A stretch of 64,000 nucleotides of DNA from assembly GCA_964613815.1 (NCBI GenBank), contig CAZTKG010000002.1, forward strand, positions 118,299 through 182,298. The letters are read 5' to 3'. Source of the stretch: an uncultured Gammaproteobacteria bacterium. Its GTDB lineage: Bacteria > Patescibacteriota > Patescibacteriia > UBA9934. The stretch's first letter is position 1; each line of letters opens with the position of its first letter. Below are positions 12,352 through 61,972 of this stretch, one piece after another. A program made the position numbers and the translations under genes. The notes under the pieces were generated by a model that was given only the letters and a program-made list of their open reading frames with translations, had not been told where the DNA came from and ran no database searches.

Positions 12352-12425
12352 TCCCGGATCGTCTAATGGCAGGACGCCTGGTTTTGGTCCAGGTAATCGG
12401 GGTTCGAATCCCTGTCCGGGAACCA
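12352..12425 (+). tRNA. tRNA-Gln (anticodon UUG), CCA encoded
   Basis: Manual fold gives acceptor TCCCGGA/TCCGGGA, D-arm GTCT-AATGGCA-GGAC, anticodon arm CCTGG-TTTTGGT-CCAGG, T-arm CGGGG-TTCGAAT-CCCTG, discriminator A and CCA. Confidence 0.8.
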
Positions 12426-12430
12426 AAGCA

Positions 12431-12461
12431 AAAAAGCTATCCTTGGATAGCTTTTTTGCTT
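12431..12461 (+). terminator. Rho-independent terminator after tRNA-Gln
   Basis: AAAAAAGCTATCCTTGGATAGCTTTTTTG. Confidence 0.75.
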
Positions 12462-12519
12462 TGTGTTTTCGGGGAGGGCTGCCCTGCGTAGCCCCTAACG
12501 CAGCCTTGGCGAAGTGGGG

Positions 12520-12534
12520 TCCGGGAACCAAAGA
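12520..12534. repeat. 15-bp direct duplicate of the tRNA-Gln 3' end (GTCCGGGAACCAAAG)
   Basis: It is identical to 12414-12428. This is a classic att-like signature about 100 bp downstream of the tRNA. Confidence 0.5.
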
Positions 12535-12599
12535 AAGAACGTCGCGTATGCGGTGTTTTTTCTTTGGTTCAATGGAGGATTTTTGTTATTCTTTCTGGG

Positions 12600-15127: not shown

Positions 15128-15206
15128 AGCGTATGTACTGTAGCATATGCGATTTTTGGGAAATGAAAATTTCAGTAGGTTTTTGTCAATATTTGTAATG
15201 AAATAC

Positions 15207-15235
15207 TTGACAGAGTGTATATTTTATGGTATTGT
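15207..15235 (+). promoter_or_regulatory. Sigma70-like promoter TTGACA-N17-TGG-TATTGT
   Basis: It has the same architecture as the promoters at 5272, 18908 and 19255. Confidence 0.5.
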
Positions 15236-15258
15236 TTTTTGTTCTTTTGGAGGGAGCG

Positions 15259-15504
15259 ATGGCGAAGTTGAGAGTTCCTGCTGCTGAGACGAGGGTGTCT
15301 CTTTCGGATGTGGAGGTGAAGCCTCCTACGTTCAAAGAGATGTTGGTCGCTTTCGTGGTGGTGATGGTGATTTGCGCGGGTGGGATTTTGCTCGGATGGG
15401 CGATCCTCGAGGCGTTGGCCACGATCCCGTTTTCGGGGGATGGCGGCGGCATCGAGCCGTGTCGCAGTCCTTGCGGCGGCGGTAATCCCCGTGGCTACAT
15501 CTAG
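15259..15504 (+). CDS. Small hypothetical membrane protein (81 aa), GC-rich
   Basis: GGAGGGA RBS, ATG at 15259, one TM helix and a Gly/Cys-rich tail. It has atypical GC-rich codons. Confidence 0.3.
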   Translation: MAKLRVPAAETRVSLSDVEVKPPTFKEMLVAFVVVMVICAGGILLGWAILEALATIPFSGDGGGIEPCRSPCGGGNPRGYI

Positions 15505-15599
15505 GTCGACAATTCTTGTTCGGCTGTTACGCTCCTGATGATTCAGGGGCGTTTCTTATTGGAGGATTTTTTGATTTGGTTGCGTGGTATGATGGTGGC

Positions 15600-17379
15600 A
15601 TGAAAGAAGAAAAAGTGAATTATCGTCAGGTTTTTAAAATGTATTGGCCCTCTGTTCGAAAGCAATGGAAGTTTATTTTTTTGTTTGTACCGCTTGGGAT
15701 GGTTACGGCGGGGCTTGTGGTGGCGGAACCGTATATTTATGGATCGGTGATTGATAGTTTGATTTTTTCTGTTCAAGAACAGCTTGGTTGGGAGGCTGGA
15801 TTTGCGGTTTTGGTGCCGTTTTTGATTGCTTGGGCGGGACTTGTGGTTGGGCAGACGTTTCTTGGGGCGTTGTATCGATATTGGGTTTGGTCGGTTGATA
15901 ATGAGATTTTGTTTGGGTTTGCGTCGGATTGGTTTCGGAAGGTTATGCGGCTTGATGTTGGGCGGTTTCGGGAAGAAAAGGCTGGCGGGCTTTTGCGGCG
16001 GTTCAATGCGGCTTGGGATGCGAGTTGGCGGGTGGTGGAGTTTTCTCTTTCGACGGTTTTGCAATCGGTGTTTTTGTTTTTTGCGGGGCTTGGGATGGGG
16101 GTGTTTATTGATTGGCGCATGACGCTTATTGCGCTTATTCCGTTGCCGATTGTAGTGACGATTGGGGTTTTTAACATGATGCTTACGGAGAAATGGCAGC
16201 GGATTGTGGAGGGATATTGGGATAAGGCGAGTGGGCTTGTTGGGGATGTGTTTATCAATATTAATGCGGTAAAGTCGTTTGTTGGAGAGGGGCGGATTGC
16301 GAAGCGGTATCGAAAGATTCACCGGCATGCGATTGATCATCAGCTGCCTGTTAATAAGCGTTGGGCGACTTCGGAGGCGCTTCAGGGGGCGGTTTATGTT
16401 GGGGGGGCGACTTGTGGTGTTTTTGGTGGGATCTTATTTTGTGCTTGGCGGAACGCTTACGCCGGGGGCTTTGATTACGTTCTTAGGACTTTCTGCGTTT
16501 ATTAGTAGTAGCGTGCAAAATGTGGTGAATCAGCTTTCGAATATTTCGCTTCAGCTTGTGCGGATGAATCGGGCGGCGCAGTTGTATTTTGAGGAGCCGG
16601 CGGTGAAGGATTTGGATCGGACGCGGCGATTAAAGCAGGTTCGTGGGGCGGTGGTGTTTGATGATGTGTCGTTTGCGTATTCGAATGGTGAGGCCGTGCT
16701 TCGGGATGTGACGTTTGAGGTTCCTGCAGGAAAGACGGTGGCGCTTGTTGGGGAGAGTGGGGCTGGAAAGAGTACGCTTGCGCAGATGATGACGCGGTTT
16801 CATGATCCGATTGAGGGGGCGGTAAAGATTGATGGGGTGGATATTCGAGAGATGAAGTTGGAGTTTTTGCGGAAGCATGTTGGATTTGTGATGCAGGATA
16901 ATATGCTGTTTCATGATTCGATTTTGGATAATATTCGATTTGCGAAGCCTGGGGCGAGTAAGGATGCGGTAATTCGGGCGGCGCGGAAGGCGCAGGCGCA
17001 TGACTTTATTAAAACTTTGAAAGGTGGGTATGACACGATTGTTGGGGAGCGAGGAGTGAAGCTGTCTGGTGGGCAGAAGCAGCGGATTGCGCTTGCTCGG
17101 GTGTTTTTGGCTGATCCTCCGGTGCTTGTGCTTGATGAGGCGACGAGCGCGCTTGATAGTAAGACGGAGCATGCACTTCAGGCGGCGCTTGAGGGGGTGA
17201 TGAAGGATCGGACGACGATTGTGATTGCGCATCGTTTGAGTACGGTGATGGGGGCGGATGAGATTTTGGTGATGGATAAGGGGCGTGTGGTAGATCGTGG
17301 GACGCATGCTCAATTGATTCGTCGGAAGGATGGGCTGTATAAGGAGTATTGGAAAATACAGGCAGGAGGATACATGTGA
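15600..17379 (+). pseudogene. ABC exporter, MsbA/lipid-A-type (TMD + NBD), interrupted by an apparent +1 frameshift in a G7 tract (16402-16408)
   Basis: ORF 15516-16505 encodes TM helices 1-5 and ORF 16279-17379 encodes TM6 plus the NBD (Walker A GESGAGKST, LSGGQKQR, Walker B VLVLDEAT). Removing one G from GGGGGGG yields a continuous protein ...AVYVGGRLVVFLVGSYFVLGGTLTPGALITF.... Confidence 0.6.
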
Positions 17380-18907: not shown

Positions 18908-18936
18908 TTGACAAAATGCCACGTTCGTGGTATTTT
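18908..18936 (+). promoter_or_regulatory. Sigma70-like promoter TTGACA-N17-TGG-TATTTT
   Basis: Same architecture as 5272, 15207 and 19255. Confidence 0.45.
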
Positions 18937-18957
18937 TTGGTTGTCTTGGAGGTTATT

Positions 18958-19170
18958 ATGGCCAAAAGACGCGGTAAAAGGCCGCAAAATCCTGGGAAAC
19001 CAGGTCAGGAACGGGCTCGAGAGACTTCTCGTCTCGAATGTCCAAGTCCTGTTCGTCGTAATCCCGTTGCTTTGCTTGCGCTTCGGCGTCATGGTGGGGT
19101 AATGGATTCTAAGCGCGGTAAGCGGGGGTACCGTAGACGCGCAAAACATCAGAACCGTGGAGAGATTTGA
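18958..19170 (+). CDS. Small highly basic protein (70 aa; ~30% R/K)
   Basis: Strong GGAGG RBS and ATG at 18958. The composition resembles nucleic-acid-binding or ribosomal-like small proteins, with no motif recognised. Confidence 0.3.
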   Translation: MAKRRGKRPQNPGKPGQERARETSRLECPSPVRRNPVALLALRRHGGVMDSKRGKRGYRRRAKHQNRGEI

Positions 19171-19254
19171 TGCTTTCGCTTTCAATCGTGCACGCCTTGA
19201 ATGAGGCGTGTTTCGCATTTTTGAGGATTTTTGGGTGTTTTTGTCTAGTTTATC

Positions 19255-19283
19255 TTGACAAAATGGGGTTTTTATGGTATGTT
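19255..19283 (+). promoter_or_regulatory. Sigma70-like promoter TTGACA-N17-TGG-TATGTT
   Basis: Same architecture as above. It lies upstream of the GC-rich cassette array. Confidence 0.45.
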
Positions 19284-19388
19284 TGTCTGTTGTATTTTTT
19301 AAAAAATGATGAGAAATGTGTTGATTTTTCAGGGATATTTAGCGACTCTCCTCCTAAATATGCCTGTTCTATCAATCTGAGGTGAAAT

Positions 19389-19787
19389 TTGAGTTTTGTT
19401 GCGTTTTTGATCGCTGCAGCCGCGATGGTGGCGCCCAAGAAGGGTATCGCTGGCGTGTTCTCGCGGCGGGCAAAGTCTGTGCCGATGACGACGGTGTCGT
19501 ATCAGCAGGGGCTGGATATGCTGCTTGGAATGGGTGGCGACGGCGCGTTGTCTTGCTGGGTCGATTCTGGGGTGCGCGTTGACGTGCTTCGGGACGGTCA
19601 GCATGATGGAACCGTGTGGCTGGAGGCGGACTCTAGCGATTACGGTTTTGATCTCGGAGCGCTTTTGAGCTGGGGTGTTAGCCATGAGATGAATGTTCGG
19701 CTTCGGTCGGTTGTTTCTCAGGGTGAAGTCTTCCAGCTGTCTGATGACGCTGCTTTGTGCAGCGTGTATCGGGTGCACTTCCGTTAA
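19389..19787 (+). CDS. Small hypothetical protein, cassette 1 of GC-rich array (TTG start, or ATG at 19425)
   Basis: GC-rich codons with C-ending preference, a hydrophobic N-terminus, and a downstream CTCCGCGCA-ATTG-TGCGCGGAG terminator. Confidence 0.4.
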   Translation: MSFVAFLIAAAAMVAPKKGIAGVFSRRAKSVPMTTVSYQQGLDMLLGMGGDGALSCWVDSGVRVDVLRDGQHDGTVWLEADSSDYGFDLGALLSWGVSHEMNVRLRSVVSQGEVFQLSDDAALCSVYRVHFR

Positions 19788-19793
19788 CGCTTG

Positions 19794-19832
19794 GGTCTCC
19801 GCGCAATTGTGCGCGGAGGCCTGGACTCTTTT
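19794..19832 (+). terminator. Cassette terminator hairpin CTCCGCGCAATTGTGCGCGGAG + T-run
   Basis: A perfect 9-bp stem with an ATTG loop and TTTTTT. Related hairpins follow each cassette (20383, 20863, 21374). Confidence 0.7.
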
Positions 19833-19902
19833 TTGAAGAGATGAATGTGTCCATTTATGTGGATGCGAAATTTTTTCAATTCAATCTGCATGGAGGTAAA
19901 TC

Positions 19903-20361
19903 ATGCGTTTGTTCTTGTATAGCATGGCCCTTTGGGGTTGTGCTGAGATGATGCATTCGTCTGGCGAAGAGGTGGTCGTGGCTGCTGAAGTGCCTGTGAA
20001 CGTTCGTCCGGAAGGGCATGTTGAGCTGGTTTCGGGAGTGTATGCTCCCGATGATACCCTCATCAATTTCATGGGACGGACAAGCCTGGATCACTTCGAG
20101 GAAGTGGTTCGAGGTGGTTCCGGTCGACGGGTCACGGCTTGTCGGATAGAGTCCTTCTGGCTTCTTCGCGGCTATTCAATGCCGATCTCATCTGCGAGGC
20201 CGCGTCAATCCGAGATTTCGACGGTTGTCGACATGCTGGACTGGCTCACTGGTCCGCTTCCGGCTCCGACTGTCATGTCGGTTGATGTGTATCGCTTGGC
20301 CAGTGACTGTCTCATCATCGAGGTGGACTGGCAGGGCGTTCACGGCATCGACGTGGACTAG
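19903..20361 (+). CDS. Small hypothetical protein, cassette 2 (152 aa)
   Basis: Conserved leader ...GCATGGAGGTAAATC-ATG, a hydrophobic N-terminus (MRLFLYSMALWGC) and GC-rich codon usage. Confidence 0.45.
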   Translation: MRLFLYSMALWGCAEMMHSSGEEVVVAAEVPVNVRPEGHVELVSGVYAPDDTLINFMGRTSLDHFEEVVRGGSGRRVTACRIESFWLLRGYSMPISSARPRQSEISTVVDMLDWLTGPLPAPTVMSVDVYRLASDCLIIEVDWQGVHGIDVD

Positions 20362-20382
20362 GTTCGCCTGTTCCTTCGTGGT

Positions 20383-20420
20383 CCCTCGCGCAGCGTGTGC
20401 GAGGGGCCGAGACTCTTTTG
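20383..20420 (+). terminator. Cassette terminator hairpin CCCTCGCGCA-GCGT-GTGCGAGGG + T-run
   Basis: Sequence inspection. Confidence 0.6.
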
Positions 20421-20491
20421 TTGAAGTGATAGATGTGCTTGCCATTAATTTGGTGAGTGAATCGTTTCTTCAACCGCATGGAGGTAAAACC

Positions 20492-20842
20492 ATGCTCGAG
20501 ATGTTGTACGCTGTGCTTTTGGCACATTCCGTTTCCGTTCCTGTCGTCGATATCGTGCCTGGTGAAATGACTCATCAGGACTTGATCGACGAGGCGATGG
20601 AGGGTGGAGATCCGAAGCTCGTCACCTGTCCGATGAAGATCGAGGGCCAGGCGGTCGATTTGATCCAGGCTCTCGGCCAGTGGCCGGCGCCGGTGCTTGC
20701 CATCGTCGTCCCCCGGGACACGATGGATCTCGGGGAGGCCGAGCAGCACTTCATCGTCGACGGAATTCGGCCGACGCTGTACGATGCCGCCTATGTCGAC
20801 ACGGTCGACGGGCAGTGCGTGGTGGCAGCGTACGGCTGGTAG
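20492..20842 (+). CDS. Small hypothetical protein, cassette 3 (116 aa), paralog of cassette 4
   Basis: Conserved leader ...GCATGGAGGTAAAACC-ATG. PVVDIVPGEMTHQDLIDEAMEGGDP aligns with PVADVGADEVIDMYEFAMEIGPHGP of cassette 4. Confidence 0.5.
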   Translation: MLEMLYAVLLAHSVSVPVVDIVPGEMTHQDLIDEAMEGGDPKLVTCPMKIEGQAVDLIQALGQWPAPVLAIVVPRDTMDLGEAEQHFIVDGIRPTLYDAAYVDTVDGQCVVAAYGW

Positions 20843-20862
20843 AGCTGTTTCAATCTTGGTTT

Positions 20863-20905
20863 GCCCCCGCGCGATTGTGCGCGGGGGCGGCCACCGATTC
20901 TTTGT
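20863..20905 (+). terminator. Cassette terminator hairpin GCCCCCGCGCG-ATTG-TGCGCGGGGGC
   Basis: Perfect 11-bp stem, ATTG loop, T-rich tail. Confidence 0.65.
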
Positions 20906-20974
20906 TTGATGGCATAATGATGGTAATCCCTCCTGGGGTTATCGGTCTCGTTTCATCAATCGATGGAGATTCTA

Positions 20975-21349
20975 ATGAATCCAGTTCTTGCGGCATGTGC
21001 CGCTTCGTTCCTTCAGTGTCTGGGCGGCCACGGTCGTCCGGTGGCGGACGTGGGTGCCGATGAAGTCATCGACATGTACGAATTCGCGATGGAGATTGGC
21101 CCGCACGGGCCGTTCGCGATCGTGTGCGATCGTGTGCATCGGCGCGTGGACGTCAAGGTCTACGATGTGCGGGGCGATTTGCTCCGCGCGACCGAGTTCA
21201 ACGGTGAGGGTTTCGCCACGTGGTGGGACATGCTGTCTCTCGTGTCCGGCGATTTCGCCTACGCGCTCGATGGTGGGTTCGTGACCACCACCAAGCACGG
21301 TATCTGTGCTGAGGTGTGGCTCCTGCCGAGTCCGGGACCCCTTCGTTAG
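20975..21349 (+). CDS. Small hypothetical protein, cassette 4 (124 aa; or from ATG 20963)
   Basis: GGAG RBS before the ATG at 20975. It is homologous to cassette 3 and GC-rich. Confidence 0.45.
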   Translation: MNPVLAACAASFLQCLGGHGRPVADVGADEVIDMYEFAMEIGPHGPFAIVCDRVHRRVDVKVYDVRGDLLRATEFNGEGFATWWDMLSLVSGDFAYALDGGFVTTTKHGICAEVWLLPSPGPLR

Positions 21350-21373
21350 TCGGGCAACGATGTTTGCTCGATG

Positions 21374-21402
21374 CCTCCCGCGTTTGTTCGCGGGAGGTTT
21401 TA
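21374..21402 (+). terminator. Cassette terminator hairpin CCTCCCGCG-TTTGTT-CGCGGGAGG + T-run
   Basis: Sequence inspection. Confidence 0.65.
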
Positions 21403-21433
21403 AGTTTGAAGAAAAAAATCCACCCTTGTTGAT

Positions 21434-21823
21434 CTACTTGATGTTGATTCGGTAGGTCAGGGTGGTGACTTGGTGCATCTCTTTGGCGATTTTGGCGGCA
21501 CAGGGTTCGATGGGGCCGTCTGTCAGCGCGTGTTTGATGGAAGTCAGAGGCGCTTTTTCCGAGTCGGCTGCGCGTTGGAGTGTGATTGAGACTTGACCGA
21601 CTCTGTTTGTCATGGCGCATGCGATTGCGATGATTTCCATGATTTTATGGAGCGCCTTGAGGCGACCAAGTTTGTCGGTTGCGGGGATGTTTCCGCAAGC
21701 GTCCCAGAGATTTGCTTCGCGGGAGGGGGAGACGGCGGATCTGGTGAGGGTTGCCGTTTGCTCCTCGAAGTTGATACGGATGCTGAGCTCTTCGCCGTTT
21801 TGGAATGCGAAGGAGTTGATCAT
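21434..21823 (-). CDS. Hypothetical protein (129 aa)
   Basis: Clean ORF with no motif recognised. GC-rich like the adjacent array. Confidence 0.35.
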   Translation of the reverse strand: MINSFAFQNGEELSIRINFEEQTATLTRSAVSPSREANLWDACGNIPATDKLGRLKALHKIMEIIAIACAMTNRVGQVSITLQRAADSEKAPLTSIKHALTDGPIEPCAAKIAKEMHQVTTLTYRINIK

Positions 21824-21904
21824 GATTTTCTCCGAAAGAGCGATTGTCGGGGTGATTTTAGCTTAGATTTTAGATAAGTCAATAAAAAAATGACGCAGGA
21901 GGCG

Positions 21905-22453
21905 TCAGTGAGGGCGAATGGTGGTGATGGTTCGAGCGACGAGAGTCATGACATTGTCATCTTGAGGGTATTCGTGTGCCGTGTCGATGGTGAGATGCTC
22001 GTTCCTCTCGTCGTGTGTCGTGACACGCACGAGTGTTGTTGGGGTGTTTCGGCCTGGGAAGTCGTGGTAGAGATCGATGATGGTTGTGCGATCGATCAGG
22101 CTCGATAGCGCTGTTTCTGGAACGCCGTGATCGCTTGTTGTCCAGATTCGGGTTTCGATTCGTCGTCCATGAGCTTTGACCCACCATTCGTTGGAGTTTG
22201 CTCCACGGAAGATATTTGCTCTCTTTAGATTAGGTGGCGGGCTACCTGTGCAGCAGAGGAGTTCTGCGAATTTGATTTTAGGTCCAGTGATGATGACGAA
22301 GTGACTTGTGCCAATGATGGCTGCGCGAACGACGTGTCCGTTCCATGGAATCGCTGTTTCGGCGAAGGTGGTGAATGTATCTGCTGGAAATTGATCGACA
22401 CTTGCCGGATCGAGATAGTGATGGAAGGTGAGATCGTGGATTGAGAGGGGCAT
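21905..22453 (-). CDS. Hypothetical protein (182 aa)
   Basis: Clean ORF with no confident family assignment. Confidence 0.4.
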   Translation of the reverse strand: MPLSIHDLTFHHYLDPASVDQFPADTFTTFAETAIPWNGHVVRAAIIGTSHFVIITGPKIKFAELLCCTGSPPPNLKRANIFRGANSNEWWVKAHGRRIETRIWTTSDHGVPETALSSLIDRTTIIDLYHDFPGRNTPTTLVRVTTHDERNEHLTIDTAHEYPQDDNVMTLVARTITTIRPH

Positions 22454-22548
22454 CTTGGCTCCGAATGAACGTGGGGGAGAGGTTATCGGTTTTTTGTGTT
22501 GGCGTCAAGTTGTTTGGGTAAAAAATAGCCCGCTGAGATTGCGGGATG

Positions 22549-23043
22549 TTAGTTCATGGTTGGGTCTCGTGTGGTGTGCGCGTTTCGGGATTCCATGTAG
22601 ATGCGGACGGAGGGAAGTTTGGATTCATGATCCGTCCATGTTTGATGCGGGATGGCGGTAATTCCTGGGTATTCCATCAGGATGACTCGGAAATTATCTT
22701 GAGGGATGTATGCGCCAAGAACGATGATCGCTCTGATAAGCTTACCGGTGAACTGCGAATCCGGATTTTTTGCTGTTTCGCAATGTTGCGTAAGGGCGCC
22801 TAAGAGACCGTGCAGGCAGCTTGCAGTTCCGAGGAGGAATTGGAATCGGTTTTCTCTTCGGGTTGTTTCTGCGTGTTGACATGCTGTTTGTAGCGCTCTG
22901 ACTTCAGCTTCTAGCTCTTGGATGACGCTCATCTTTTCGTAGATAATTACGCCTGCTGATGTTCTTGTCGCTTGGAGTCTTTTTCGCGTGCGGAGGATTG
23001 TGATGATGAGGAAGAGGATGATTGCGGAGGGGAGAAGGAGCAT
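22549..23043 (-). CDS. Hypothetical membrane-anchored protein (164 aa)
   Basis: N-terminal TM helix (LLLPSAIILFLIITIL); no motif recognised. Confidence 0.35.
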   Translation of the reverse strand: MLLLPSAIILFLIITILRTRKRLQATRTSAGVIIYEKMSVIQELEAEVRALQTACQHAETTRRENRFQFLLGTASCLHGLLGALTQHCETAKNPDSQFTGKLIRAIIVLGAYIPQDNFRVILMEYPGITAIPHQTWTDHESKLPSVRIYMESRNAHTTRDPTMN

Positions 23044-23168
23044 TGATGGCCTCGAATGAGCGTGGAGACCATACCTTGAATATTGAGATTTGTGAATGGT
23101 TATGATACTGTGGGCTCACAATTTGATCCCACCTAACCCTAGTAAATGGGTTTGTGGGCGTTTTTCTT

Positions 23169-30412: not shown

Positions 30413-30551
30413 TATGATGAAAAAACCTCGACACGGATGTCGAGGGTCGGTGGTAAGCGCTGCGGCGCACTGCGTGGCGAAGCCTTGCATTGCGTGGATA
30501 TTTGATCATGAATTTGGGTTGGTGTCAATGAGTATGTTTTGTCGAGATGGG

Positions 30552-30580
30552 TTGACTGTTTCCGTATATGTTGCTACATA
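30552..30580 (+). promoter_or_regulatory. Promoter TTGACT-N17-TACATA upstream of REC-domain gene
   Basis: Sequence inspection. Confidence 0.4.
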
Positions 30581-30634
30581 GGGCATGGAGTTCTTTCATA
30601 CAATTTGTCGAAATATCGGCGATCGGAGATACAA

Positions 30635-32050
30635 ATGAAGATTCAGAAGAATGGCATGACGTTTACGGTCCTTCCTGAGGGCGGCTTCACCTGTGATGAT
30701 CTTGCTGGCTTGCCGGCGGCGTTTGAGGAGAGGTGGAGTTCGGAGGAGATTCAGGACGATACGGCTCGGCATCTTGCCGCGTTGCGAGGTCTCGCGAGGC
30801 CGCGCTTTGTTTCAGACGAGGAGCGTGACGCTGTTCCTGAGGGTCATCGGAAGGCGCTTGGAGAGGAGCGGTTCGACGAGGTCGTCGCTTCGTTGCGGGC
30901 CCGCGTGTGTGACCTCGATCCTTTTCAGCAGTTTGTGTTCTGGATCAGTCATTGGTGGCACTTTCTTGACGGGGAGGCTGAGGGGATTTGTGTTTCATTT
31001 ATTGAGGCCCAGGAGAGTTCGAAGTTGGCGATTAGGGAGAGGGTTTTCCCGCTCTTTCCCAGGGGTGTGCAGCGCGCAGTGATGGATGCTGATTTTCTTT
31101 CGGTCGCTGTTGGGGGTGGTCACTTTGCGATGCTGTTTGGTGGTACGAGTCGGCGGCTCATTGTGACTGACACGCAGCTTTTTGAGCTTCGGGATGTGCA
31201 TGGGTATTCGTATCTGGGCATTACCGCTGAAGGGTTGCCAGTGGCTCGGTCGAGGTGTAATCGTTTCGGTGGGCGGGCTTGGTTTGATGGTCGTCGATTG
31301 ATGGCGCATCCGCAGTTTCAGACCTGTGCGCCTGGCATGGTGGTCATCGATGGCGGATATAAGGTCAATACGACTCGCGCGACGATCGTGAATGGTGCCC
31401 ATTATGCGCTTGTCGATGAGGCTGACGCTGTTGCTCATACGACTGGTTCTGCTGGGGGGCCGTGGGGCGCTACGTTTACGTCTGCCGAGGGCATTCAGTC
31501 GATTGCTTTGGCGCGTCAGTCGGGGGAGCGGATGCGGGTCGAGGAGGGGCGTGTGAAGTTGGATGGGCGTGAGCTCAAGCCGTTTGGCATGTTTACTCCG
31601 TCGTCGGTTCAGCTGCTCGATAACGGCTTCGCTCTGTACGGATGGTCGGATTATCACGAGATTGTCTCGATTCGGTATGATCGCGTCATCATTGTAGATG
31701 ACCGTTCGGATTGGATTGATTCCGTTGTCTCTCATTTCGCTGATGATGATGTCGCCTTCGAGGTGTTCTGCACTGATCATGCTGGGGTGGCGCTTAGTGG
31801 CATTCTTCGGTCGGAGCCCGACGCCGTACTGCTCGACATGCATCTGACTGATGAGGAGCGGTTTGATGGGTTGTGGATCGCGAATGAGCTCGCGAAGCGT
31901 GAGTTCTCGGGACGGATTATGATTACGAGCGGGTCTGGGTTGAGGCAGCTTCAGGCGATGCAGGCGCTTATTCATGTTGCGACCGACGCGCCTGGCAAGG
32001 ACTTGGATCGGATTCAGCTTGCTCTGTGTGGGCGGCTGTCTGACGAATGA
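30635..32050 (+). CDS. Hypothetical protein with C-terminal response-regulator receiver (REC) domain; GC-rich, atypical codon usage
   Basis: The C-terminal ~120 aa have VIIVDD, LLDMHL (phospho-Asp position) and IMITSG (T/S position), consistent with a CheY-like fold. The N-terminal ~370 aa are unassigned. GGAGA RBS before the ATG at 30635. Confidence 0.5.
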   Translation: MKIQKNGMTFTVLPEGGFTCDDLAGLPAAFEERWSSEEIQDDTARHLAALRGLARPRFVSDEERDAVPEGHRKALGEERFDEVVASLRARVCDLDPFQQFVFWISHWWHFLDGEAEGICVSFIEAQESSKLAIRERVFPLFPRGVQRAVMDADFLSVAVGGGHFAMLFGGTSRRLIVTDTQLFELRDVHGYSYLGITAEGLPVARSRCNRFGGRAWFDGRRLMAHPQFQTCAPGMVVIDGGYKVNTTRATIVNGAHYALVDEADAVAHTTGSAGGPWGATFTSAEGIQSIALARQSGERMRVEEGRVKLDGRELKPFGMFTPSSVQLLDNGFALYGWSDYHEIVSIRYDRVIIVDDRSDWIDSVVSHFADDDVAFEVFCTDHAGVALSGILRSEPDAVLLDMHLTDEERFDGLWIANELAKREFSGRIMITSGSGLRQLQAMQALIHVATDAPGKDLDRIQLALCGRLSDE

Positions 32051-32118
32051 TATTCGTCGTTCTCTCGGATTTTCCGGGGGATTTTTTATTTGGATGGGCG
32101 CGCGCTTTGTGTTCTGTG

Positions 32119-32231
32119 TCATCTCGACCTTGCTGGAGAGATCTCATCCTGCCAGCACGGCTGATATTTACCGACGTCGGTGATCATTGCTCGCGGTACC
32201 GAAGAGGGTCTCTCCAGCAAGGTCGAGATGA
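32119..32231. repeat. MITE-like composite RPE-family element: 23-bp perfect terminal inverted repeats (GTCATCTCGACCTTGCTGGAGAG) flanking a ~65-bp core
   Basis: The arms are exact reverse complements and share the CATCTCGACC/GGTCGAGATG ends with the RPE family. It is intergenic, upstream of mraZ. Confidence 0.75.
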
Positions 32232-32528
32232 CAACGGGGGAGTGGGGGATGGTTTTTTATATATATCTGACGTTCTGTGGATAGTTGTGGTTGCTGGTGG
32301 GGGCGTGGTGGGTTATAGTGGGGGCAACGAGGCACAAAGTGGGGCGCCCCGCAATTTTCGTTTGCGGAGCTCGAGTCGTAAGACTCCATGTTCGGGAAAC
32401 TTCCCCCTGTCAGGAATTGTTGTAACGCTTACTCTCGGTGAGCATGCGCCAACGATTCGTGATAGGAATCGATCAACCGCGTGTTCTTTCCTTTGCGCGA
32501 CGTTAGCCGTTAAGGCGACGTTAAAACA

Positions 32529-32961
32529 TATGTTCATAGGCGAGTATCATCACCAATTAGACGACAAGGGTCGCCTTGCGATCCCGGTGAAGTTTCGTGG
32601 AGACCTTGCGAAAGGTGCGGTTGTGACGCGAGGTCTTGACTCTTCACTGTTCCTGCTCCCCTTGGAGGAGTGGGGCAAGCTTGCTGATTCTTTGGCAAAT
32701 TTGCCCTTGGGGCAGGCAAACTCACGTGCGTTCTCCCGTCTCATGCTTGCGGGCGCAATGGACGTGAAGTTGGATAAACAAGGGAGATTCATTGTTCCCG
32801 AATACTTACGGAAGTATGGGAAGTTGGATAAGAAAGTGGTAATTGTCGGGGTTTCTACTCGACTGGAGCTTTGGGATGCGGCTACTTGGGAAGCGTATTC
32901 TGCGCAGACTCAGGCGGATGCTGAAGCGATCGCTGAACAGTTAGGAGATTTAGGAATCTAG
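32529..32961 (+). CDS. mraZ: Transcriptional regulator MraZ
   Basis: Two SpoVT/AbrB-like repeats (GEYHHQLDDKGRLAIP...; LDKQGRFIVPEYLRKYG). It is followed by rsmH as in dcw clusters. Confidence 0.85.
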
Positions 32962-32971
32962 ATTAATAGGT

Positions 32972-33826
32972 ATGAAGCATGTCCCTGTCCTCATGAATGA
33001 GGTTTTGGACGGGCTCAATCTACAGTCTGGAGACACGGTTATTGACGCAACTGTCGGTCTTGGAGGGCACGCGCAGCGTTTGCTGGACGTGGTGTCTCCT
33101 GGAGGAGAGTTGATTGGGTTCGACCGTGATGAGAGAAATTTACAAGAGGCAAAGAGGCGACTTGGCAGTGATTCTGCAAGTTGTCGGTTGATTCACGATT
33201 CGTTTGCGAATGTTGGGTCGCACGATTTGCCTGGTGTGGATGGCGCTCTGTTTGATCTTGGGTACTCTTCTGTTCATGTTGATGACGCGGAACGTGGGTT
33301 CAGTTTTCAGCAGGATGGGCCTCTTGATATGCGGTATGACACGCGTGACGGGAGGACGGCGGAAGATATCGTAAACGACTGGAGCGAGGAGGAGTTGGCG
33401 CGGATTTTTCGTCAGTTTGGCGAAGAGCGGTTTAGTGCGCGGATTGCGCAGCGAGTTGTTCGTGAGCGTAAAATGGTGCGTATTACGACAACGACGCAGT
33501 TGGCTGACGTTGTTGCGAGTGCGGTGCCGGCGCGTGGGAAGATTCATCCTGCGACAAAGGTGTTTCAGGCGCTTCGGATGGAGGTGAATGATGAGCTTTC
33601 ACATATTGAAAAAGGATTGGGGGATGCAATTGGACTTCTGAAGTCAGGGGGTCGAATTGCGGTCATCAGTTTTCATTCGCTTGAAGATCGGCTGGTTAAG
33701 CAGCTGTTTAAAGGGCGAGATGATTTGGGGCTGATTAATAAGAAGGTTATTCGTCCTAGTGATGAAGAGACTTCTGAGAATCCGCGAGCGCGCAGTGCTA
33801 AGTTGCGTGTTGCTGAGAAGATTTAG
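32972..33826 (+). CDS. rsmH: 16S rRNA (cytosine1402-N4)-methyltransferase
   Basis: HVPVLMNEVL...VIDATVGLGGHA...GFDRDE...DLGYSS motifs of RsmH/MraW. Confidence 0.9.
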   Translation: MKHVPVLMNEVLDGLNLQSGDTVIDATVGLGGHAQRLLDVVSPGGELIGFDRDERNLQEAKRRLGSDSASCRLIHDSFANVGSHDLPGVDGALFDLGYSSVHVDDAERGFSFQQDGPLDMRYDTRDGRTAEDIVNDWSEEELARIFRQFGEERFSARIAQRVVRERKMVRITTTTQLADVVASAVPARGKIHPATKVFQALRMEVNDELSHIEKGLGDAIGLLKSGGRIAVISFHSLEDRLVKQLFKGRDDLGLINKKVIRPSDEETSENPRARSAKLRVAEKI

Positions 33827-48624: not shown

Positions 48625-48668
48625 GCTTGATACAAAAGTGGTCCGTACGGACCACTTTTGTATCAAGC
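48625..48668. repeat. 44-bp perfect palindrome GCTTGATACAAAAGTGGTCCGTAC|GTACGGACCACTTTTGTATCAAGC
   Basis: Exact self-complementarity. It shares the 16-bp core TGGTCCGTACGGACCA with the palindrome at 48767. Confidence 0.8.
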
Positions 48669-48766
48669 AAGTGAGTTGGTCTGGTCGATGATTCGTCCAT
48701 TTTTTGTTTACATGGTTTTATTTGTTTTCTTCTTGATGAAAAAGATGAACATGTATAGCGCGTTTT

Positions 48767-48810
48767 GCCTGTATTAATAATGGTCCGTACGGACCATTAT
48801 TAATACAGGC
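48767..48810. repeat. 44-bp perfect palindrome GCCTGTATTAATAATGGTCCGTAC|GTACGGACCATTATTAATACAGGC
   Basis: Exact self-complementarity. It has the same core as 48625 but different arms. Confidence 0.8.
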
Positions 48811-48862
48811 AGAGCTGTTTGATTTTATGGGGAGAGTTGAGTCGGATGAGGGAAGGGGATAG

Positions 48863-50297: not shown

Positions 50298-50602
50298 TTT
50301 TGTGCTGCCGAGATCAGCTATGTGCCGGGAGGGTCGAGTTGAGCTCGATTGCCTCGCTCAGCAGTTTTCGGTTGGAAGATCTGCGAAGCTCAGCTTCGCT
50401 AGACACCGATCTTCAAACCGAGCTGAGCTCGGTGGCGGACCGGACGGGTTGAGTAACAAGGTTTGGGAGGTTTTGTAAGGGCTTTTGGGATATTATTTCT
50501 AGACGAATTTCAGGCACTCGGGTCGGGGTCTTTTTTGGGAACTTGAGACAAAATGAGACAGTAGTTAAAAAAATGGGGGGCTAAATCATAAAATCACGGC
50601 TT

Positions 50603-51109
50603 ATGAAAATTCCCAAAGACCTAGTTCAAGAACTTAAGGATATTCATCAAGAAAAGACAGGTAAAACGTTGAGTAATGAAGACGCGCTTGAGGGAGCAAA
50701 CAACTTAACCAATTTCGCCAAGCTTCTACTGGACTGTGCTGAGCGCGATCGTAAACGTAAACTGCAGCTCAAAGAGTCGCCAAAGGGTTTCCATCTTCCC
50801 GAAGGAGAACGTTACAATTGTTTCATTTGCCACAATGTAGTTTCAGGAGAATCAAGTTGGTACAGCAAGCACGGGATCACGTGTCTTATTTGCAAGGAAG
50901 CTTTGAGGAAGCGAGTCATTCCAGTGAGTGTCATGCGCAATCGTGATAGCTGGTTAGCGATGTGGGAAGTGAAGAAGCTTCTTGTACTACACCACTCCAC
51001 CATACTAAAAATGATCCGCACTGGTAAACTAAAGGCGCGGATCATTAAAAATGGAGAGCGTGATTACTTTTGGGTGTTTTTGAAGAAAGAGAATCGTCTA
51101 CTCACCTAA
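50603..51109 (+). CDS. Zn-ribbon (CxxC...CxxC) protein with C-terminal HTH-like segment (possible excisionase/MerR-like regulator)
   Basis: CFICHN...CLICKE zinc ribbon. [17 protein letters not shown] resembles a MerR/Xis-type HTH. The gene is AT-rich. Confidence 0.4.
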
Positions 51110-52306
51110 GTCGGCGTCACCATCTGAAAGTTCTTCAAACTTAGCTGTCATTGTAGGATTGCCTCGTGTCAATTTTTTAATCGTCAGATCTTCCGCCTTA
51201 TTATTGGCGAGACGCAGGTTGTTTTCAGAAGACAGGAGGGCCGCCTTAGTCTTTTGAAGATGATTGATTGTTTTATCGATTTCATCAATGGCAGTTTTGA
51301 ATCTACGACTCGCAAGATCGTAGTTTTTTGCGAACCCTTCCTTAAAGACGTTTATCCGATCTTCAAAATTTGTAATGTCCACATTTTGGCTTCGCATCAA
51401 AGCAAGTTCTGCTTTGTATTCGAGAGAGTTCATTGCGGCGTTGCGGAGCAGTGTAATCATCGGAATAAAGAATTGCGGACGAACTACGTACATCTTAGGG
51501 TATTTATGAGACACGTCGACAATACCTGTGTTATACAGTTCATTTTCGGTCTCCAAGAGCGTTACCAGAACAGCATATTCACAATTTTTCTCTGTGCGGT
51601 CTTTATCAAGCTCACGTAAAAAGTCTTCGTTCTTTTTCTTTGTGGCAGTTTCATCGCCTTCATTTTTCATTTCGAACATGATAGAAGTAATTTCATTCCC
51701 AGCTTCGTCGGTTTCCCGATAAATGTAATCGCCCTTACTTCCGGTTTTGGAATCATTATCCTTTTCAAAATATGCATTTTGAAAAGCAGTTGCACGGAGT
51801 TTGTTGAACTCAGTTTCACAATGCTGTTCCAGGGTCTCCCCAAGCATTTTGGTGCTGAGTTTTAATTTCATGTCCTTGTAACGCTCAATCATTTCATCCT
51901 TTGACTTTAATTCATTTTCATACTTTTCCTTCATAGAAACTTCGCGCAGCTCCATTTCATGCTCCTTGCTTTGCAACTTATTCTTGAGATGGTCTCGTTC
52001 TTTTTCGATGGAATTAACTGCCTCTGTTACGGCGAGTTTTTTCTCAAGAGCCTCACTCTCCATTTTTGACTTGAGAGAAGCTATCTCGGAGTCTTTTTTT
52101 ACAAGGTCTTCCTGCATTGAATTCTTTAGATTGGCCTCAGCGAGTTTCACGGCATCTTCTTGCTGTCTCTCGGCTAAAGATAGGCGATCATGCAGTTCTT
52201 TTTCAAACTGATCGTCACGAACTTGTTTGAGAATATCCGCGAACCCAGCTTCATCTACTTTGAAAGTCTTTTTACAGTGCGGGCAATTGATGGTTTGGTC
52301 GGTCAT
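51098..52306 (-). CDS. DUF2130-like protein: N-terminal Zn-ribbon (CPHC), long coiled coil, C-terminal globular domain
   Basis: [19 protein letters not shown]... then a ~200-aa coiled coil and a C-terminal KGDYIYRE...[12 protein letters not shown] segment, consistent with the DUF2130 architecture. Confidence 0.5.
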
Positions 52307-52399
52307 ACAGGGTTTGGTTTATTGGTTAGAAACTTGACGCATCTCTTGTTTATGGTAATATCACGTTCAGATATAAGTGTCAAACTCTGAATAAGAAAT

Positions 52400-53281
52400 A
52401 TGCAATCAATACCCTCTCAGGATCAAGCTTTGCTCAATCTGGGCAAAATCAACGGCTGGATTGACTCCTCACCTGTCGCAACCGTCATGCGCCATTCTAT
52501 GGCAAATTTAGCATTTGAGCTTACAAAAGCAGATCTTCAAGTAGAAATCGACATTGGTAACCTGCTTTCAATCTCTGATTCTCCAATTACATCAAAACGA
52601 TTCAAGAAAGTCTTTCTCGATCCTCTTGTGGGAAATGATTATGCTGTGGTCTTACAAAAAGTCCATCAACAAATATTCGCACAGAGTGAAGGGTATCAAT
52701 TTCAACCAGGGCAATTGCGATCGGAGAATACCCCTGGACAAATACAGGGCATTATTAACAAAATTGATGAGAGCAGTGATTCTCCATTCGCAAAGGCCCT
52801 AGATCTTCATAAGAATTTTCTAGACCTAAAACCATTTAATAACGGAAATGAAATCATTGCAGCTCTGCTACCAAATATATACCTAACTCATCGAGGTGTA
52901 ATGCTTGCGCCCATACTAAGCTTTCATAATTTCCCTGCACAAGGCGATGATGCAGATGAGTGGTTTCAAGACCAAACAAATCTTATCATCACTCTCTTGC
53001 ACGAAATTCGAGATTTGGAGCAAGAATACAAAAGTCGAACTAATGGATTTGCAACACAGCGTAAAAAACTTTTCTCAGGACTTTTGCCTTTTATGATGAA
53101 ACGTCCGAAGTTTACGATTCAAGAATTACTGGATGAATATGGACAAAGTACATATCAAACCATTAATGAACTATTCAAAGATCTGGTAAAGCTCAATGTG
53201 CTAAAGGAGCTTACGGGAAATGCGCGGTTCAGAGTCTTTCACCTTCACGAATATTCAAATCTTTTCAAAACAATCGTATGA
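52400..53281 (+). CDS. Fic/DOC-family-like protein with degenerate active-site motif (KPFNNGNE in place of HPFx[DE]GNGR)
   Basis: Fido-like length and helical pattern, with the motif-like segment LDLKPFNNGNEIIAALL. It sits just upstream of hsdM, a position frequently occupied by Fic genes in Type I R-M loci. Confidence 0.45.
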   Translation: MQSIPSQDQALLNLGKINGWIDSSPVATVMRHSMANLAFELTKADLQVEIDIGNLLSISDSPITSKRFKKVFLDPLVGNDYAVVLQKVHQQIFAQSEGYQFQPGQLRSENTPGQIQGIINKIDESSDSPFAKALDLHKNFLDLKPFNNGNEIIAALLPNIYLTHRGVMLAPILSFHNFPAQGDDADEWFQDQTNLIITLLHEIRDLEQEYKSRTNGFATQRKKLFSGLLPFMMKRPKFTIQELLDEYGQSTYQTINELFKDLVKLNVLKELTGNARFRVFHLHEYSNLFKTIV

Positions 53282-55317
53282 CAAATTTCAAAGATAAGAC
53301 TCAGCTCATTTGGAGTATTGCAGATATTCTCCGTGGTGGATGGAAGCAACATGAGTATCAAGATGTCATTCTTCCTCTTGTTGTTATCAAGCGTTTAGAT
53401 CTCCTCCTCTCCTCAACAAAGAAGTCTGTGCTCGAGCAATATAACGAGCTAAGTGGAGAGATTAATGACCTTGATCCAATTCTCAAGGCAACATCTGGAG
53501 TCGGTTTTTATAATATCTCTGAATATGACTTTGAGTCACTTCTTGAAGACCCTGCTGGCATTGCACAGAACTTTAGAAATTATTTAAACAAGTTTAGTGA
53601 AAATATTACTGACATTATTGAGAAGTTTGATTTTGATCGTCAGCTAGATCGTCTTGATGGAGGAAATCTCTTGTATGAAATTATAAAGGTCATAAATAAA
53701 GTTGACCTTCATCCGGATCGTGTAGACAATCATGAGATGGGGTCCATCTTTGAGGAGCTTATTAGAAAATTTGCGGAACAATCGAATGAGACCGCTGGGG
53801 AGCATTACACGCCACGCGATGTGATTAAAGTCATGGTCGAAGTTCTCTTCGCACCAGACCAAAAAAAACTCCAAAAAGAACATCTTATTAAAACCGTCTA
53901 CGATTGTGCTTGTGGTACTGGTGGGATGCTCTCTGTTGCAAAGGATCACATAAAAGATGAGATTAAAAGTGATGCAGACATCTACCTTTACGGACAAGAG
54001 CTCAACCCTGTCACCTACGCTATGTGTAAGGCGGACATGCTGATTAAGGGTGAGGACCCGAATAATATTAAAGGTGGAGAAAAAGATCATTCACTGGCAA
54101 GCACACTTGCAAATGATCAGTTTTTTGGAAAGGACTTTGACTATATGCTTACAAACCCTCCTTTTGGAGTGGATTGGAAAAAAGACAAGCAAACTGTTGA
54201 GCGAGAGGCTGAACGTGGATTTGCTGGGCGTTTTGGTGCGGGGACACCGCGTGTATCAGATGGACAATTGCTTTTTCTACAACATCTTATTTCAAAAATG
54301 AGACCAGAACATGATGGTGGGTCGCGCTTAGGAATTGTTTTTAATGGCTCACCACTATTTACTGGTGATGCAGGAAGCGGAGAGAGTGAAATTCGTAGAT
54401 GGATTTTAGAGAACGATTGGCTTGAAACAATAATCGCGCTTCCTGATCAGCTATTTTTCAACACAGGTATCCCAACATACCTTTGGTTTATTACGAACCG
54501 AAAATCAGATGAGCGTAAAGGTAAGGTGCAGATTGTAGACGCTCGAGGCTTCTGTAAAAAAATACGAAAGAGTCTCGGAAACAAACGTAATGAGATTACG
54601 GAAGATGATCGGAAAAAGATCATTGAACTTTATTCGTCATTTGAAGAAAATGAACACTCAAAGATTTTCAACAATGAAGACTTTGGATACCGACAGATCA
54701 CCGTGGAACGACCTCTTCGATTGAACTTTCAGGTAAATGAGGAGCGGTTGAAAAATCTGACCTTGGATAAATTTCTCACCACTGGTGAAAAAAAAGCAAC
54801 AAAATTACAACTACAGCGAGCTGCTATTTGTCGAATATTAACCAATGCAGTTTTACCGAAGATGTCAAAAAAACTGTACAAAAATCGTCAGGAATTTATC
54901 AGTGACCTGACCGATACATACAACTCCATTGGTGATCTAGATACTCCACTACCACAGCCGATATTAAAAGCAGTGATTGAATCACTTTCAGAACAGGATG
55001 ATACGGCAGATATTTGTATGGACAGCAAGGGCAACTCTGAAGCACATGCAAGCTTACGTGACACAGAAAATATTCCACTCGATCAAAATATTCAGGAGTA
55101 TTTCAATAAAGAAGTAAAGCCTTATGTTACGGATGCTTGGATCAATGAAAGTAAAAAAGATCACAAGGATAAAAAGATCGGGAAAGTTGGATATGAGATT
55201 CCTGTGACAAGATTTTTTTACAAATACAATACCCCAAGATCATTGAAAGATATTGAAATCGATATTCAAAAAACAGAGCAAGAGCTTGTTGATCTTCTTA
55301 AACAGATGTCTGTATGA
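53278..55317 (+). CDS. hsdM: Type I restriction-modification system, methyltransferase (M) subunit
   Basis: N-terminal HsdM domain (LIWSIADILRG), AdoMet motif I (DCACGTGGML) and motif IV NPPFG (LTNPPFGVDW). Confidence 0.9.
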   Translation: MTNFKDKTQLIWSIADILRGGWKQHEYQDVILPLVVIKRLDLLLSSTKKSVLEQYNELSGEINDLDPILKATSGVGFYNISEYDFESLLEDPAGIAQNFRNYLNKFSENITDIIEKFDFDRQLDRLDGGNLLYEIIKVINKVDLHPDRVDNHEMGSIFEELIRKFAEQSNETAGEHYTPRDVIKVMVEVLFAPDQKKLQKEHLIKTVYDCACGTGGMLSVAKDHIKDEIKSDADIYLYGQELNPVTYAMCKADMLIKGEDPNNIKGGEKDHSLASTLANDQFFGKDFDYMLTNPPFGVDWKKDKQTVEREAERGFAGRFGAGTPRVSDGQLLFLQHLISKMRPEHDGGSRLGIVFNGSPLFTGDAGSGESEIRRWILENDWLETIIALPDQLFFNTGIPTYLWFITNRKSDERKGKVQIVDARGFCKKIRKSLGNKRNEITEDDRKKIIELYSSFEENEHSKIFNNEDFGYRQITVERPLRLNFQVNEERLKNLTLDKFLTTGEKKATKLQLQRAAICRILTNAVLPKMSKKLYKNRQEFISDLTDTYNSIGDLDTPLPQPILKAVIESLSEQDDTADICMDSKGNSEAHASLRDTENIPLDQNIQEYFNKEVKPYVTDAWINESKKDHKDKKIGKVGYEIPVTRFFYKYNTPRSLKDIEIDIQKTEQELVDLLKQMSV

Positions 55318-61272: not shown

Positions 61273-61281
61273 CCGCTGTCT

Positions 61282-61956: not shown

Positions 61957-61972
61957 ATACAGTGGATAACTA

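Follow-up and report, generated by a model that had tools for sequence, protein, structure and literature searches.

Four plus-strand open reading frames (ORFs) of 132, 152, 116 and 124 aa, here called U1 to U4, lie in tandem within 19.39 to 21.40 kb of a 64,000-nt stretch of contig CAZTKG010000002.1 (positions 118,299 to 182,298), referred to below as the window (Table 1). Each ORF begins, with ATG or TTG, 5 to 7 nt behind a GGAG-type Shine-Dalgarno (SD) sequence, and a GC-rich hairpin begins 4 to 24 nt 3' of every stop codon. A second, AT-richer hairpin precedes every SD; it had been overlooked in the first-pass annotation of this DNA, which described a tandem array of small-protein cassettes. 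The array itself is real: its four same-strand units each have their own SD and their own GC-rich hairpin, and they are joined by homologous spacers.

In the called frames of U1 to U4, GC content has its minimum at codon position 2, which is the coding pattern, and alternative same-strand frames are abnormal in this regard. From this pattern, the correctly spaced SD sequences and the hairpins past the stop codons, we conclude that the four ORFs are real genes. The start of U4 is placed at ATG 20975, 6 nt behind a GGAG, in preference to ATG 20963, which has no SD; U4 in this form agrees with one public gene call. A 13-nt block at the SD, GCATGGAGGTAAA, has exactly two occurrences in the window, at 19888 before U2 and at 20476 before U3. 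The common leader ending that had been proposed for the units holds exactly for these two, is degenerate in unit 4 (TCGATGGAGATTCTAATG), and is reduced to TCAATCTGAGGTG in unit 1.

The intercistronic spacers, 115 to 132 nt long, are entirely accounted for by copies of one hairpin module of 115 to 130 nt, arranged in the order stop codon, GC-rich stem-loop, short U-rich single-stranded linker (G)ACUCUUUU, second stem-loop, SD and start codon. The U1-U2 and U2-U3 spacers are 68% identical over their length (92 of 135 columns) and their leader parts 73%, above the 60% originally claimed for the leaders of units 2 and 3. In local DNA alignments scored against shuffled sequences, this pair reaches z = 26 and the U3-U4 spacer reaches z = 8.7 and 5.1 against the other two; the U3-U4 spacer also matches the region past U4 (z = 5.3), the common part being the terminator hairpin. 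In contrast, all six ORF-ORF comparisons at the DNA level give z <= 1.0. The DNA likeness of U2 and U3 past the start codon is gone within about 8 codons, the proteins starting MRLFLYSM and MLEMLYAV, respectively. By these alignments the spacers are homologous and the ORF bodies are without detectable similarity, which bears out the earlier picture of conserved boundaries around non-conserved genes.

The core of the GC-rich hairpin, CCGCGCRATTGTGCGCGG, is found twice in the window, at 19799 and 20867, with 0.11 occurrences expected by chance, and the core of the hairpin behind U3 (T3, 20862-20888) matches that of the hairpin behind U1 (T1) at 17 of 18 nt. T1 and T2 pass the looser rule of the terminator scan, and T3 was not flagged by it. 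T4 has a 10-bp stem with 8 GC pairs, followed directly by TTTTAAGTTTG, and is classed as an intrinsic terminator. A hairpin of this type had been annotated 3' of every ORF and is present at all four, T4 alone being a canonical terminator.

The leader hairpins have conserved bases, (G/T)TTGA(A/T)(G/T)...(C/A/T)(A/T)TCAA(C/T), and unit-specific inner stems. All four fold better than shuffled sequences (z -3.8 to -6.1) and are in the top eight of the 104 TTGA-N-TCAA candidates of 40 to 65 nt on both strands of the 64-kb window. They were assessed by per-sequence folding and a descriptor scan, not by a covariance model; a consensus of the four (MAFFT/RNAalifold) was not obtained, the inner stems not being alignable. 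Rfam 15 gave no match at gathering score, only a weak sodF small RNA match inside U2 (E = 0.68). The unit 1 hairpin (-18.6 to -19.9 kcal/mol, z -5.3 to -6.1) keeps its stability in DNA and in antisense RNA. For units 2, 3 and 4, the folding energies are -17.4, -18.7 and -19.9 kcal/mol for the sense RNA (z -4.7, -4.6 and -3.9) and -3.0, -6.8 and -7.5 kcal/mol for the antisense RNA (z -0.4, -2.0 and -0.7). As single-stranded DNA (ssDNA), the plus strand of the same three hairpins reaches -3.0, -4.7 and -6.6 kcal/mol (z -0.6, -1.9 and -2.2) and the minus strand -2.5, -1.9 and -4.3 kcal/mol (z -0.7, -0.1 and -1.3). Their stems rely on G-U pairs and are stable as sense RNA only; the module is therefore predicted to act on mRNA, not DNA. 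This points to a function in mRNA, against a DNA operator palindrome or an attC-type single-strand site. Sequestration of the SD by the conserved CUCUUUU linker, or a thermometer-like switch, was considered and rejected, the SD pairing probabilities being inconsistent from unit to unit (0.37, 0.28, 0.33 and 0.91).

The four proteins are orphans. A phmmer search with concatenated U1-U4 against 1.84 billion cluster representatives returned self matches only; each was a single stretch, and the units therefore do not match one another. A word-index search with U3 found its own cluster only, none of the four has a family match in Pfam, NCBIfam, PADLOC or PHROGs, nothing meaningful was found among PDB sequences, and tblastn of the array proteins against 50,697 phage and 72,556 plasmid records found nothing. 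Three sets of marginal hits were set aside: DUF6726 for U3 (E = 0.096, under cutoff), PHROG matches to the units (E >= 0.08), and a CdiA match in PDB (E = 0.45) that spans the artificial U3/U4 junction of the concatenated query. Among the units themselves, BLASTP gave E >= 0.7 throughout, hhalign P = 0.28-0.64, and Smith-Waterman alignment against shuffles p = 0.045 for U1-U4 (uncorrected) and p >= 0.17 for the other pairs. U3 and U4, which had been called clearly homologous, are not demonstrably so (Smith-Waterman z = 0.69, p = 0.24; hhalign P = 0.28; no link in phmmer).

All four proteins are small (116-152 aa) and acidic (pI, isoelectric point, 4.05-5.45). The hydrophobic N-termini attributed to them proved to be short stretches: in a 19-residue Kyte-Doolittle window the membrane threshold is reached by U1 (1.66) and U3 (1.86) and not by U2 or U4. 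The N-termini of U1, U3 and U4 have no positively charged n-region, and on a crude hydropathy assessment LWGC in U2 and LAAC in U4 are too near the N-terminus for a convincing lipobox. Single-sequence AlphaFold2 (AF2) models of U2 and U3 were too poor for fold searches (see Table 1 for the predicted local distance difference test score, pLDDT). Small, acidic, fast-diverging proteins are compatible with a role as binders or inhibitors, and our guess is that such a role suits U1-U4 better than that of enzymes.

The array lies in a 4.2-kb island (about 18.9-23.1 kb) that is foreign in composition. GC skew is 0.4-0.6 outside the island and 0.07-0.3 inside it (about 18.9-23.2 kb), and the GC content of U1-U4 is 0.56-0.62 against about 0.5. 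Codon use is unlike that of the host, as had been noted: third-position C (C3) is 0.21, 0.26, 0.36 and 0.37 in U1 to U4 and 0.01-0.10 in 35 other plus-strand ORFs at 1-50 kb. Three plus-strand genes at 30.5-33.8 kb are atypical themselves, with third-position C of 0.11-0.18; this stretch (window 30500-33800) is a second low-skew patch (0.19-0.25), and one of its products is a 503-aa protein with a C-terminal response-regulator receiver domain.

Upstream of U1, a promoter with 10 of 12 consensus positions and a TG extension begins at 19255. We call it host-type because its motif, TTGACAAAATG-N9-TGGTATKTT, recurs four times in the window (5272, 15207, 18908 and 19255), with 0.05 occurrences expected. 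A sigma-70-type scan with a threshold of >= 9/12 positions found no promoter in any of the three spacers between cistrons. Of the internal sites, TTGAAG-17-TATGTG ahead of U2 comes closest, with 7 of 12 positions, and the unit 4 leader has no plausible -10 at any spacing. The 19255 site is thus the probable promoter of the whole array. We tentatively read the array, at a confidence just short of even, as one accessory, horizontally acquired operon of orphan genes whose cistrons are split by a repeated punctuation module acting at the RNA level.

In this operon, transcription would run from 19255 through the four cistrons to T4. T1 to T3 may attenuate or pause transcription, or protect 3' ends, and the U-rich linker between the two hairpins is a candidate endonuclease site, cleavage at which would equip every cistron with one hairpin guarding its 3' end and another guarding its 5' end. 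The outcome would be four separately stabilised and separately translated messages of graded abundance. The array may have grown through re-use of the module by duplication or recombination, with ORF bodies that would be unrelated or diverged past detection.

Several points weigh against this reading. Read-through at T1-T3 and cleavage in the linker are themselves inferred, and T1 and T2, flagged as terminator-like by the scan, may stop most transcription. The plus strand is G+T-rich, which favours G-U pairing, and dinucleotide shuffles control for this only partly. The promoter-early stem-loops (PeSLs) of T4-type phages also hold G-T pairs and overlap promoters (PMC2839356); on that precedent, a hairpin in the RNA is by itself compatible with a weak promoter lying over it, TTGAAG-17-TATGTG of unit 2 being an example. 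The stepwise C3 gradient across U1-U4, together with a third-position GC (GC3) of 0.61 in U2 and 0.78 in U3, misfits both arrival en bloc and simple duplication in place. Finally, the region is found on eight public contigs, from several marine metagenome samples, and all copies belong to the same strain and are >= 99.8% identical, which affords no evolutionary test of coding or of RNA structure.

Table 1. Features of the array and of the island around it (window coordinates; GC1/2/3, GC content at codon positions 1, 2 and 3)
Feature	Position	Strand	Description
U1	19389-19787	+	132-aa orphan ORF, TTG start, pI 5.45; GC1/2/3 0.64/0.44/0.63
U2	19903-20361	+	152-aa orphan ORF, pI 4.7; AF2 single-sequence pLDDT 36.2
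U3	20492-20842	+	116-aa orphan ORF, pI 4.05; GC1/2/3 0.69/0.36/0.78; AF2 pLDDT 44.8
U4	20975-21349	+	124-aa orphan ORF, SD GGAG at 20965, pI 4.82
T1	19791-19824	+	GC-rich hairpin 3' of U1; U run begins 4 nt past stem
T2	20379-20409	+	GC-rich hairpin 3' of U2; U run begins 6 nt past stem
T3	20857-20893	+	GC-rich hairpin 3' of U3; then CCGA, then TTCTTTGTTTG (interrupted U run)
T4	21373-21402	+	hairpin 21373-21398, then TTTT directly; sole canonical intrinsic terminator of the array
Leader hairpin, unit 1	19320-19376	+	GTTGAT...ATCAAT base, in 5' untranslated region just ahead of SD GAGGTG
Leader hairpin, unit 2	19833-19879	+	TTGAAG...TTTCAA base
Leader hairpin, unit 3	20421-20473	+	TTGAAG...CTTCAA base
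Leader hairpin, unit 4	20906-20959	+	TTGATG...CATCAA base
SD region, unit 2	19888-19900	+	conserved GCATGGAGGTAAA
SD region, unit 3	20476-20488	+	conserved GCATGGAGGTAAA
Host-type promoter	19255-19283	+	TTGACA-17-TATGTT with TG extension; 10/12 consensus positions
Island left part	18908-19215	+	host-type promoter (duplicate of 19255), 77-aa basic ORF 18937-19170, own hairpin
Island right part	21412-23096	-	three convergent single-gene units M5-M7, each with own terminator and/or promoter-like site; composition intermediate
M5	21434-21823	-	convergent to U4
M6	21905-22453	-	DUF2617, E = 6e-11
M7	22549-23043	-	N-terminal membrane helix

Within the window, the 13-mer, the hairpin core and the linker motif are confined to the array. 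An nhmmer profile of the three spacers, run on the window and 104 kb of distant relatives, recovered its own source spacers (E = 1e-26 to 5e-32), gave a weak match to T4 (E = 0.21) and found nothing further. Exact-pattern scans of a viral collection gave no module match. A metagenome scan for TTCAA-N2-3-GCATGGAGGTAAA-N2-3-ATG gave three matches, all inside histidine-kinase genes (...RHGGKI..) and attributed to chance; it found no genuine copy of the module, a weak negative, since the source contigs themselves were not returned. The first-pass annotation had named units no more alike than chance and a module found nowhere else as grounds for abandoning its view, and this came out half so: the unit proteins lack significant similarity and, in the sequences searched, the module was confined to the array, the spacers within it being homologous. 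No terminal direct or inverted repeats and no tRNA bound the island, the sole repeat being the host-type promoter at 18908 and 19255. Integrase domains are absent from the flanking genes scanned (DUF362, CTP-transferase-like, a basic ArfA-like ORF, DUF2617 and uvrB) and from ten other large ORFs scanned in the window. With neither terminal repeats nor a tRNA found, the island was rejected as a transposon or integrative element. The observation that no toxin or integrase is visible thus stands for the ORFs scanned.

Unlikely, yet with real arguments behind it, is that each unit is its own transcription unit, in the manner of a phage PeSL cassette or moron, with a weak promoter over the second hairpin, then the ORF, then a terminator; the homologous spacers would then be recombination points that shuffle unrelated orphan genes, as in the plastic regions of T4-type phages. 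PeSLs are regulatory cassettes of these phages that carry strong sigma-70 consensus promoters, and number about 50 per phage genome; recombination between them, with formation of mini-circles, has been demonstrated (Arbiol et al. 2010, PMC2839356; Comeau et al. 2014, PMC4122927). Often the stem-loop of a PeSL overlaps the -35 and -10 boxes or sits in the space separating them, and it includes G-T pairs (PMC2839356); in the unit 2 leader TTGAAG does stand 17 nt ahead of TATGTG. Here too, composite spacers of stem-loop and SD flank orphan ORFs without detectable similarity in a compositionally foreign islet, and the two modules most alike stand on either side of one ORF, U2, the outcome expected if a circle of ORF plus module had inserted into a module already in place. 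M5-M7 and the ArfA-like ORF are likewise single-gene units with promoter-like or terminator-like sites of their own. However, all spacers fall short of the promoter threshold, and in unit 4 a plausible -10 is lacking at any spacing. No other module was found in the 64-kb window, the 104 kb of relatives, or the viral and metagenome collections; no phage genes were found nearby and tblastn gave no phage match. Moreover, the eight public copies show no variation, and a module identity of 59-68% is low for efficient homologous recombination.

A comparably low but serious probability goes to descent from one ancestral cassette by tandem duplication, the regulatory parts being constrained and the proteins diverging under diversifying selection, as in immunity, anti-defence or surface proteins; this partly overlaps with the operon reading. 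When long gaps are made cheap, U2 and U3 align collinearly over their full length (z = 3.05, p = 0.006 local; p = 0.01 global), sharing MxxxLY at the start, GG....VT.C, VD.L..L.G..PAP.V, and C....W near the end, and U3 and U4 reach p = 0.029 (global). No correction for the six pairs and the several scoring schemes was applied to these p-values, and we take the U2/U3 signal, faint as it is, as a hint only. The low-confidence AF2 secondary-structure strings of U2 and U3 are collinear with the alignment, no two spacers are more alike than those ahead of U2 and U3, in line with what tandem duplication predicts, and all four proteins share small size and acidity. However, BLASTP, phmmer and hhalign detect nothing, and similarity between the ORFs at the DNA level is nil though the adjoining spacers are 68% identical. 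The GC3 difference between U2 and U3 is unexpected for equally old copies in one place, and neither a match to an immunity family nor a gene for a toxin, an effector or secretion was found.

We consider it improbable that the two-hairpin spacer serves as a handle for recombination by which genes are shuffled, in PeSL-like fashion, on the chromosome of an ultra-small bacterium of the candidate phyla radiation (CPR) type, with unrelated orphans captured singly and without a dedicated recombinase. If it did, the stepwise C3 values (0.21, 0.26, 0.36, 0.37) would record successive arrivals, dated by the unusually strong strand-specific mutation bias of this genome. More doubtful still is that U1-U4 are not genes at all but frames that happen to be open in foreign, GC-rich DNA, or else pseudogenes undergoing decay, with the hairpins as remnants. 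The entire absence of homologs in phmmer, the low-confidence AF2 models of U2 and U3, and the presence in this GC-rich stretch of several overlapping alternatives to the called ORFs, 98-144 aa long, would fit this. Four consecutive frames that start just behind an SD and stop just before a strong hairpin would not, nor would an SD block identical over 13 nt in two units or a codon-position GC pattern that is that of coding sequence in the frame called but abnormal in its same-strand alternatives.

In integron cassette arrays, attC sites have RYYYAAC (R'') at the 5' end and GTTRRRY (R') at the 3' end of an imperfect palindrome. The integron-like analogy was drawn in the first-pass annotation; taken up here with the second hairpins as attC-type single-strand sites for a tyrosine recombinase encoded elsewhere, it is largely refuted and strikes us as very improbable: small, unrelated, same-orientation ORFs are indeed split by structured, imperfect palindromes of 47-55 nt with conserved ends (TTGA...TCAA) and variable centres, but the base order 5'-GTTGAAG...CTTCAAC-3' is the reverse of attC and is unchanged on reverse complementing, the unit 2-4 hairpins are not stable as ssDNA on either strand, no IntI or other integrase domain was found in the scanned window ORFs, every ORF is served by an SD of its own immediately past the hairpin, which is itself preceded by an extra, separate GC hairpin, and the module recurs nowhere else searched.

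Flanking the island are a CTP-transferase-like gene and uvrB. In one relative (L008), whose genes run DUF362, CTP-transferase, uvrB, uvrA, uvrC, these two are separated by about 220 bp. The 77-aa basic ORF in its left part has ArfA, the alternative ribosome-rescue factor, as four of its six best PDB sequence matches, including the top three (E = 0.56-0.96), and carries KRGKRGYRRRAKHQNRG where ArfA has KKGKGSYMRKGKHGNRG; the matches are not significant and Pfam gives nothing. To the right, M5 and M6 had been said to share the composition of the array. Their C-ending codons are the norm for minus-strand genes of the host (third-position C 0.53 in M5 and 0.44 in M6 vs 0.58-0.68), and the sole atypical trait of M5-M7 is a raised third-position G (0.10-0.15 vs 0.04-0.07). 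The M5 stop codon lies inside a hairpin (CCACCCU...AGGGUGG, 21412-21465) followed by AUUUUUUU on the minus strand, so the M5 and U4 terminators are convergent and back-to-back, about 20 nt apart. A supposed fifth, truncated leader past T4 (TTTGAAGAAAAAAAT at 21405) was rejected, its A run being the minus-strand U tract of the M5 terminator (21420-21465).

Through the DUF362 protein (54-56% identity), the nearest genomes found have conflicting labels, namely metagenome-assembled genomes (MAGs) of 'uncultured Gammaproteobacteria' and 'Candidatus Uhrbacteria'; tentatively, the host is probably a Patescibacteria-type, small-genome marine bacterium. Its strand asymmetry is extreme at window 1-50000, where GC skew per kb is +0.26 to +0.56, mostly >= +0.4, outside the 19-23 and 30-33 kb patches. 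Nearly all genes in that stretch are on the plus strand; third-position C is 1-10% in typical host genes of that strand, and third-position G is 4-7% in minus-strand host genes. To our knowledge, such asymmetry far exceeds usual bacterial skews.

Elsewhere in the window, two perfect palindromes of about 44 nt (48625-48668 and 48762-48811; -35 to -41 kcal/mol) with the core TGGTCCGTACGGACCA lie in a gap between convergent genes. A tRNA-Gln gene (12352-12425) is followed by long hairpins at 12413-12472 and 12517-12576, both of which contain TCCGGGAACCAAAG, possibly an att-like duplicate of the tRNA 3' end. A low-GC island at 50600-63400 (GC 0.36-0.41 at 51-62 kb, with little skew) encodes a DUF2130 protein, a Fic-domain protein, HsdM, HsdS and HsdR, with a DUF6119 protein inserted between the HsdS and HsdR genes of this type I restriction-modification system. 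A relative MAG, CAYVLY010000001.1 (L007), carries at 15161-17307 a tandem array of four visibly related small proteins of 153-186 aa, of which proteins 1 and 2 share the C-terminus ...PPPG(E/D)YG(E/D)AIVVNT.EELEAALSKILTDPELG and proteins 2 and 3 the N-terminus MQGSLLLTKLAMASTLNLH; it is unrelated in sequence to U1-U4.

The array is a clean case: spacers 68% identical, genes between them that share nothing, and no relatives among about 15 billion predicted proteins. It offers a small test bed for how reduced genomes acquire orphan genes and wire their expression, in a host whose strong strand bias makes foreign DNA stand out and allows relative dating in principle. If the spacers are self-contained units of attenuation, cleavage and end protection, they would be compact parts for operon punctuation. 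The value is modest; long-standing open questions are untouched by the array, and the strand asymmetry of the host may be the more remarkable of the two.

Overall, the array resembles neither an integron nor a toxin-immunity array but has the look of an ordinary accessory operon. Orphan immunity-gene arrays lie downstream of polymorphic toxins (contact-dependent inhibition, Rhs and type VI secretion loci) and likewise consist of tandem small, acidic, highly divergent proteins of foreign composition. The immunity or effector analogy that had been suggested fails here: no toxin gene was found upstream and no toxin C-terminal remnants between the ORFs, the upstream genes being housekeeping genes; PADLOC and Pfam gave nothing, there is no immunity-family match, and paralogy is not demonstrable. 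Phage morons are promoter-gene-terminator units of deviant composition inserted between genes. Like them, the array comprises small genes of deviant composition, each with its own 3' stem-loop, between conserved neighbours; unlike them, it has no detectable internal promoters, and neither a prophage context nor phage homologs were found.

As an architecture of homologous regulatory motifs flanking unrelated orphans, the PeSL is, by analogy, the closest described. In both, a repeated intergenic series of stop codon, stem-loop with G-T/G-U pairs, SD and start codon flanks small orphan genes, and homologous modules alternate with non-homologous ORFs in a plastic, compositionally distinct region; the PeSL hallmark, a stem-loop and SD motif immediately upstream of orphan genes, is present here. 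Unlike PeSLs, the array spacers have no consensus promoter and two hairpins per module, and, in the window and the 104 kb of relatives searched, they are confined to one array in a bacterial chromosome, with no mobility seen.

Segmental mRNA stability is set by intercistronic stem-loops in malEFG (repetitive extragenic palindromic hairpins) and in the Rhodobacter puf operon; RNase III sites lie between phage T7 genes, and the ompA and aprE leaders are 5' stem-loop stabilisers. Unlike these known stabilisers, the array repeats a homologous two-hairpin module, without an Rfam match, between every pair of cistrons. The likenesses are hairpins directly past the stop codon and directly before the next SD with a U-rich linker between, structure in the sense transcript only (here in units 2-4), and a canonical terminator only at the end of the operon. 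By analogy, intercistronic stabiliser or processing hairpins would be the best fit at the level of mechanism.

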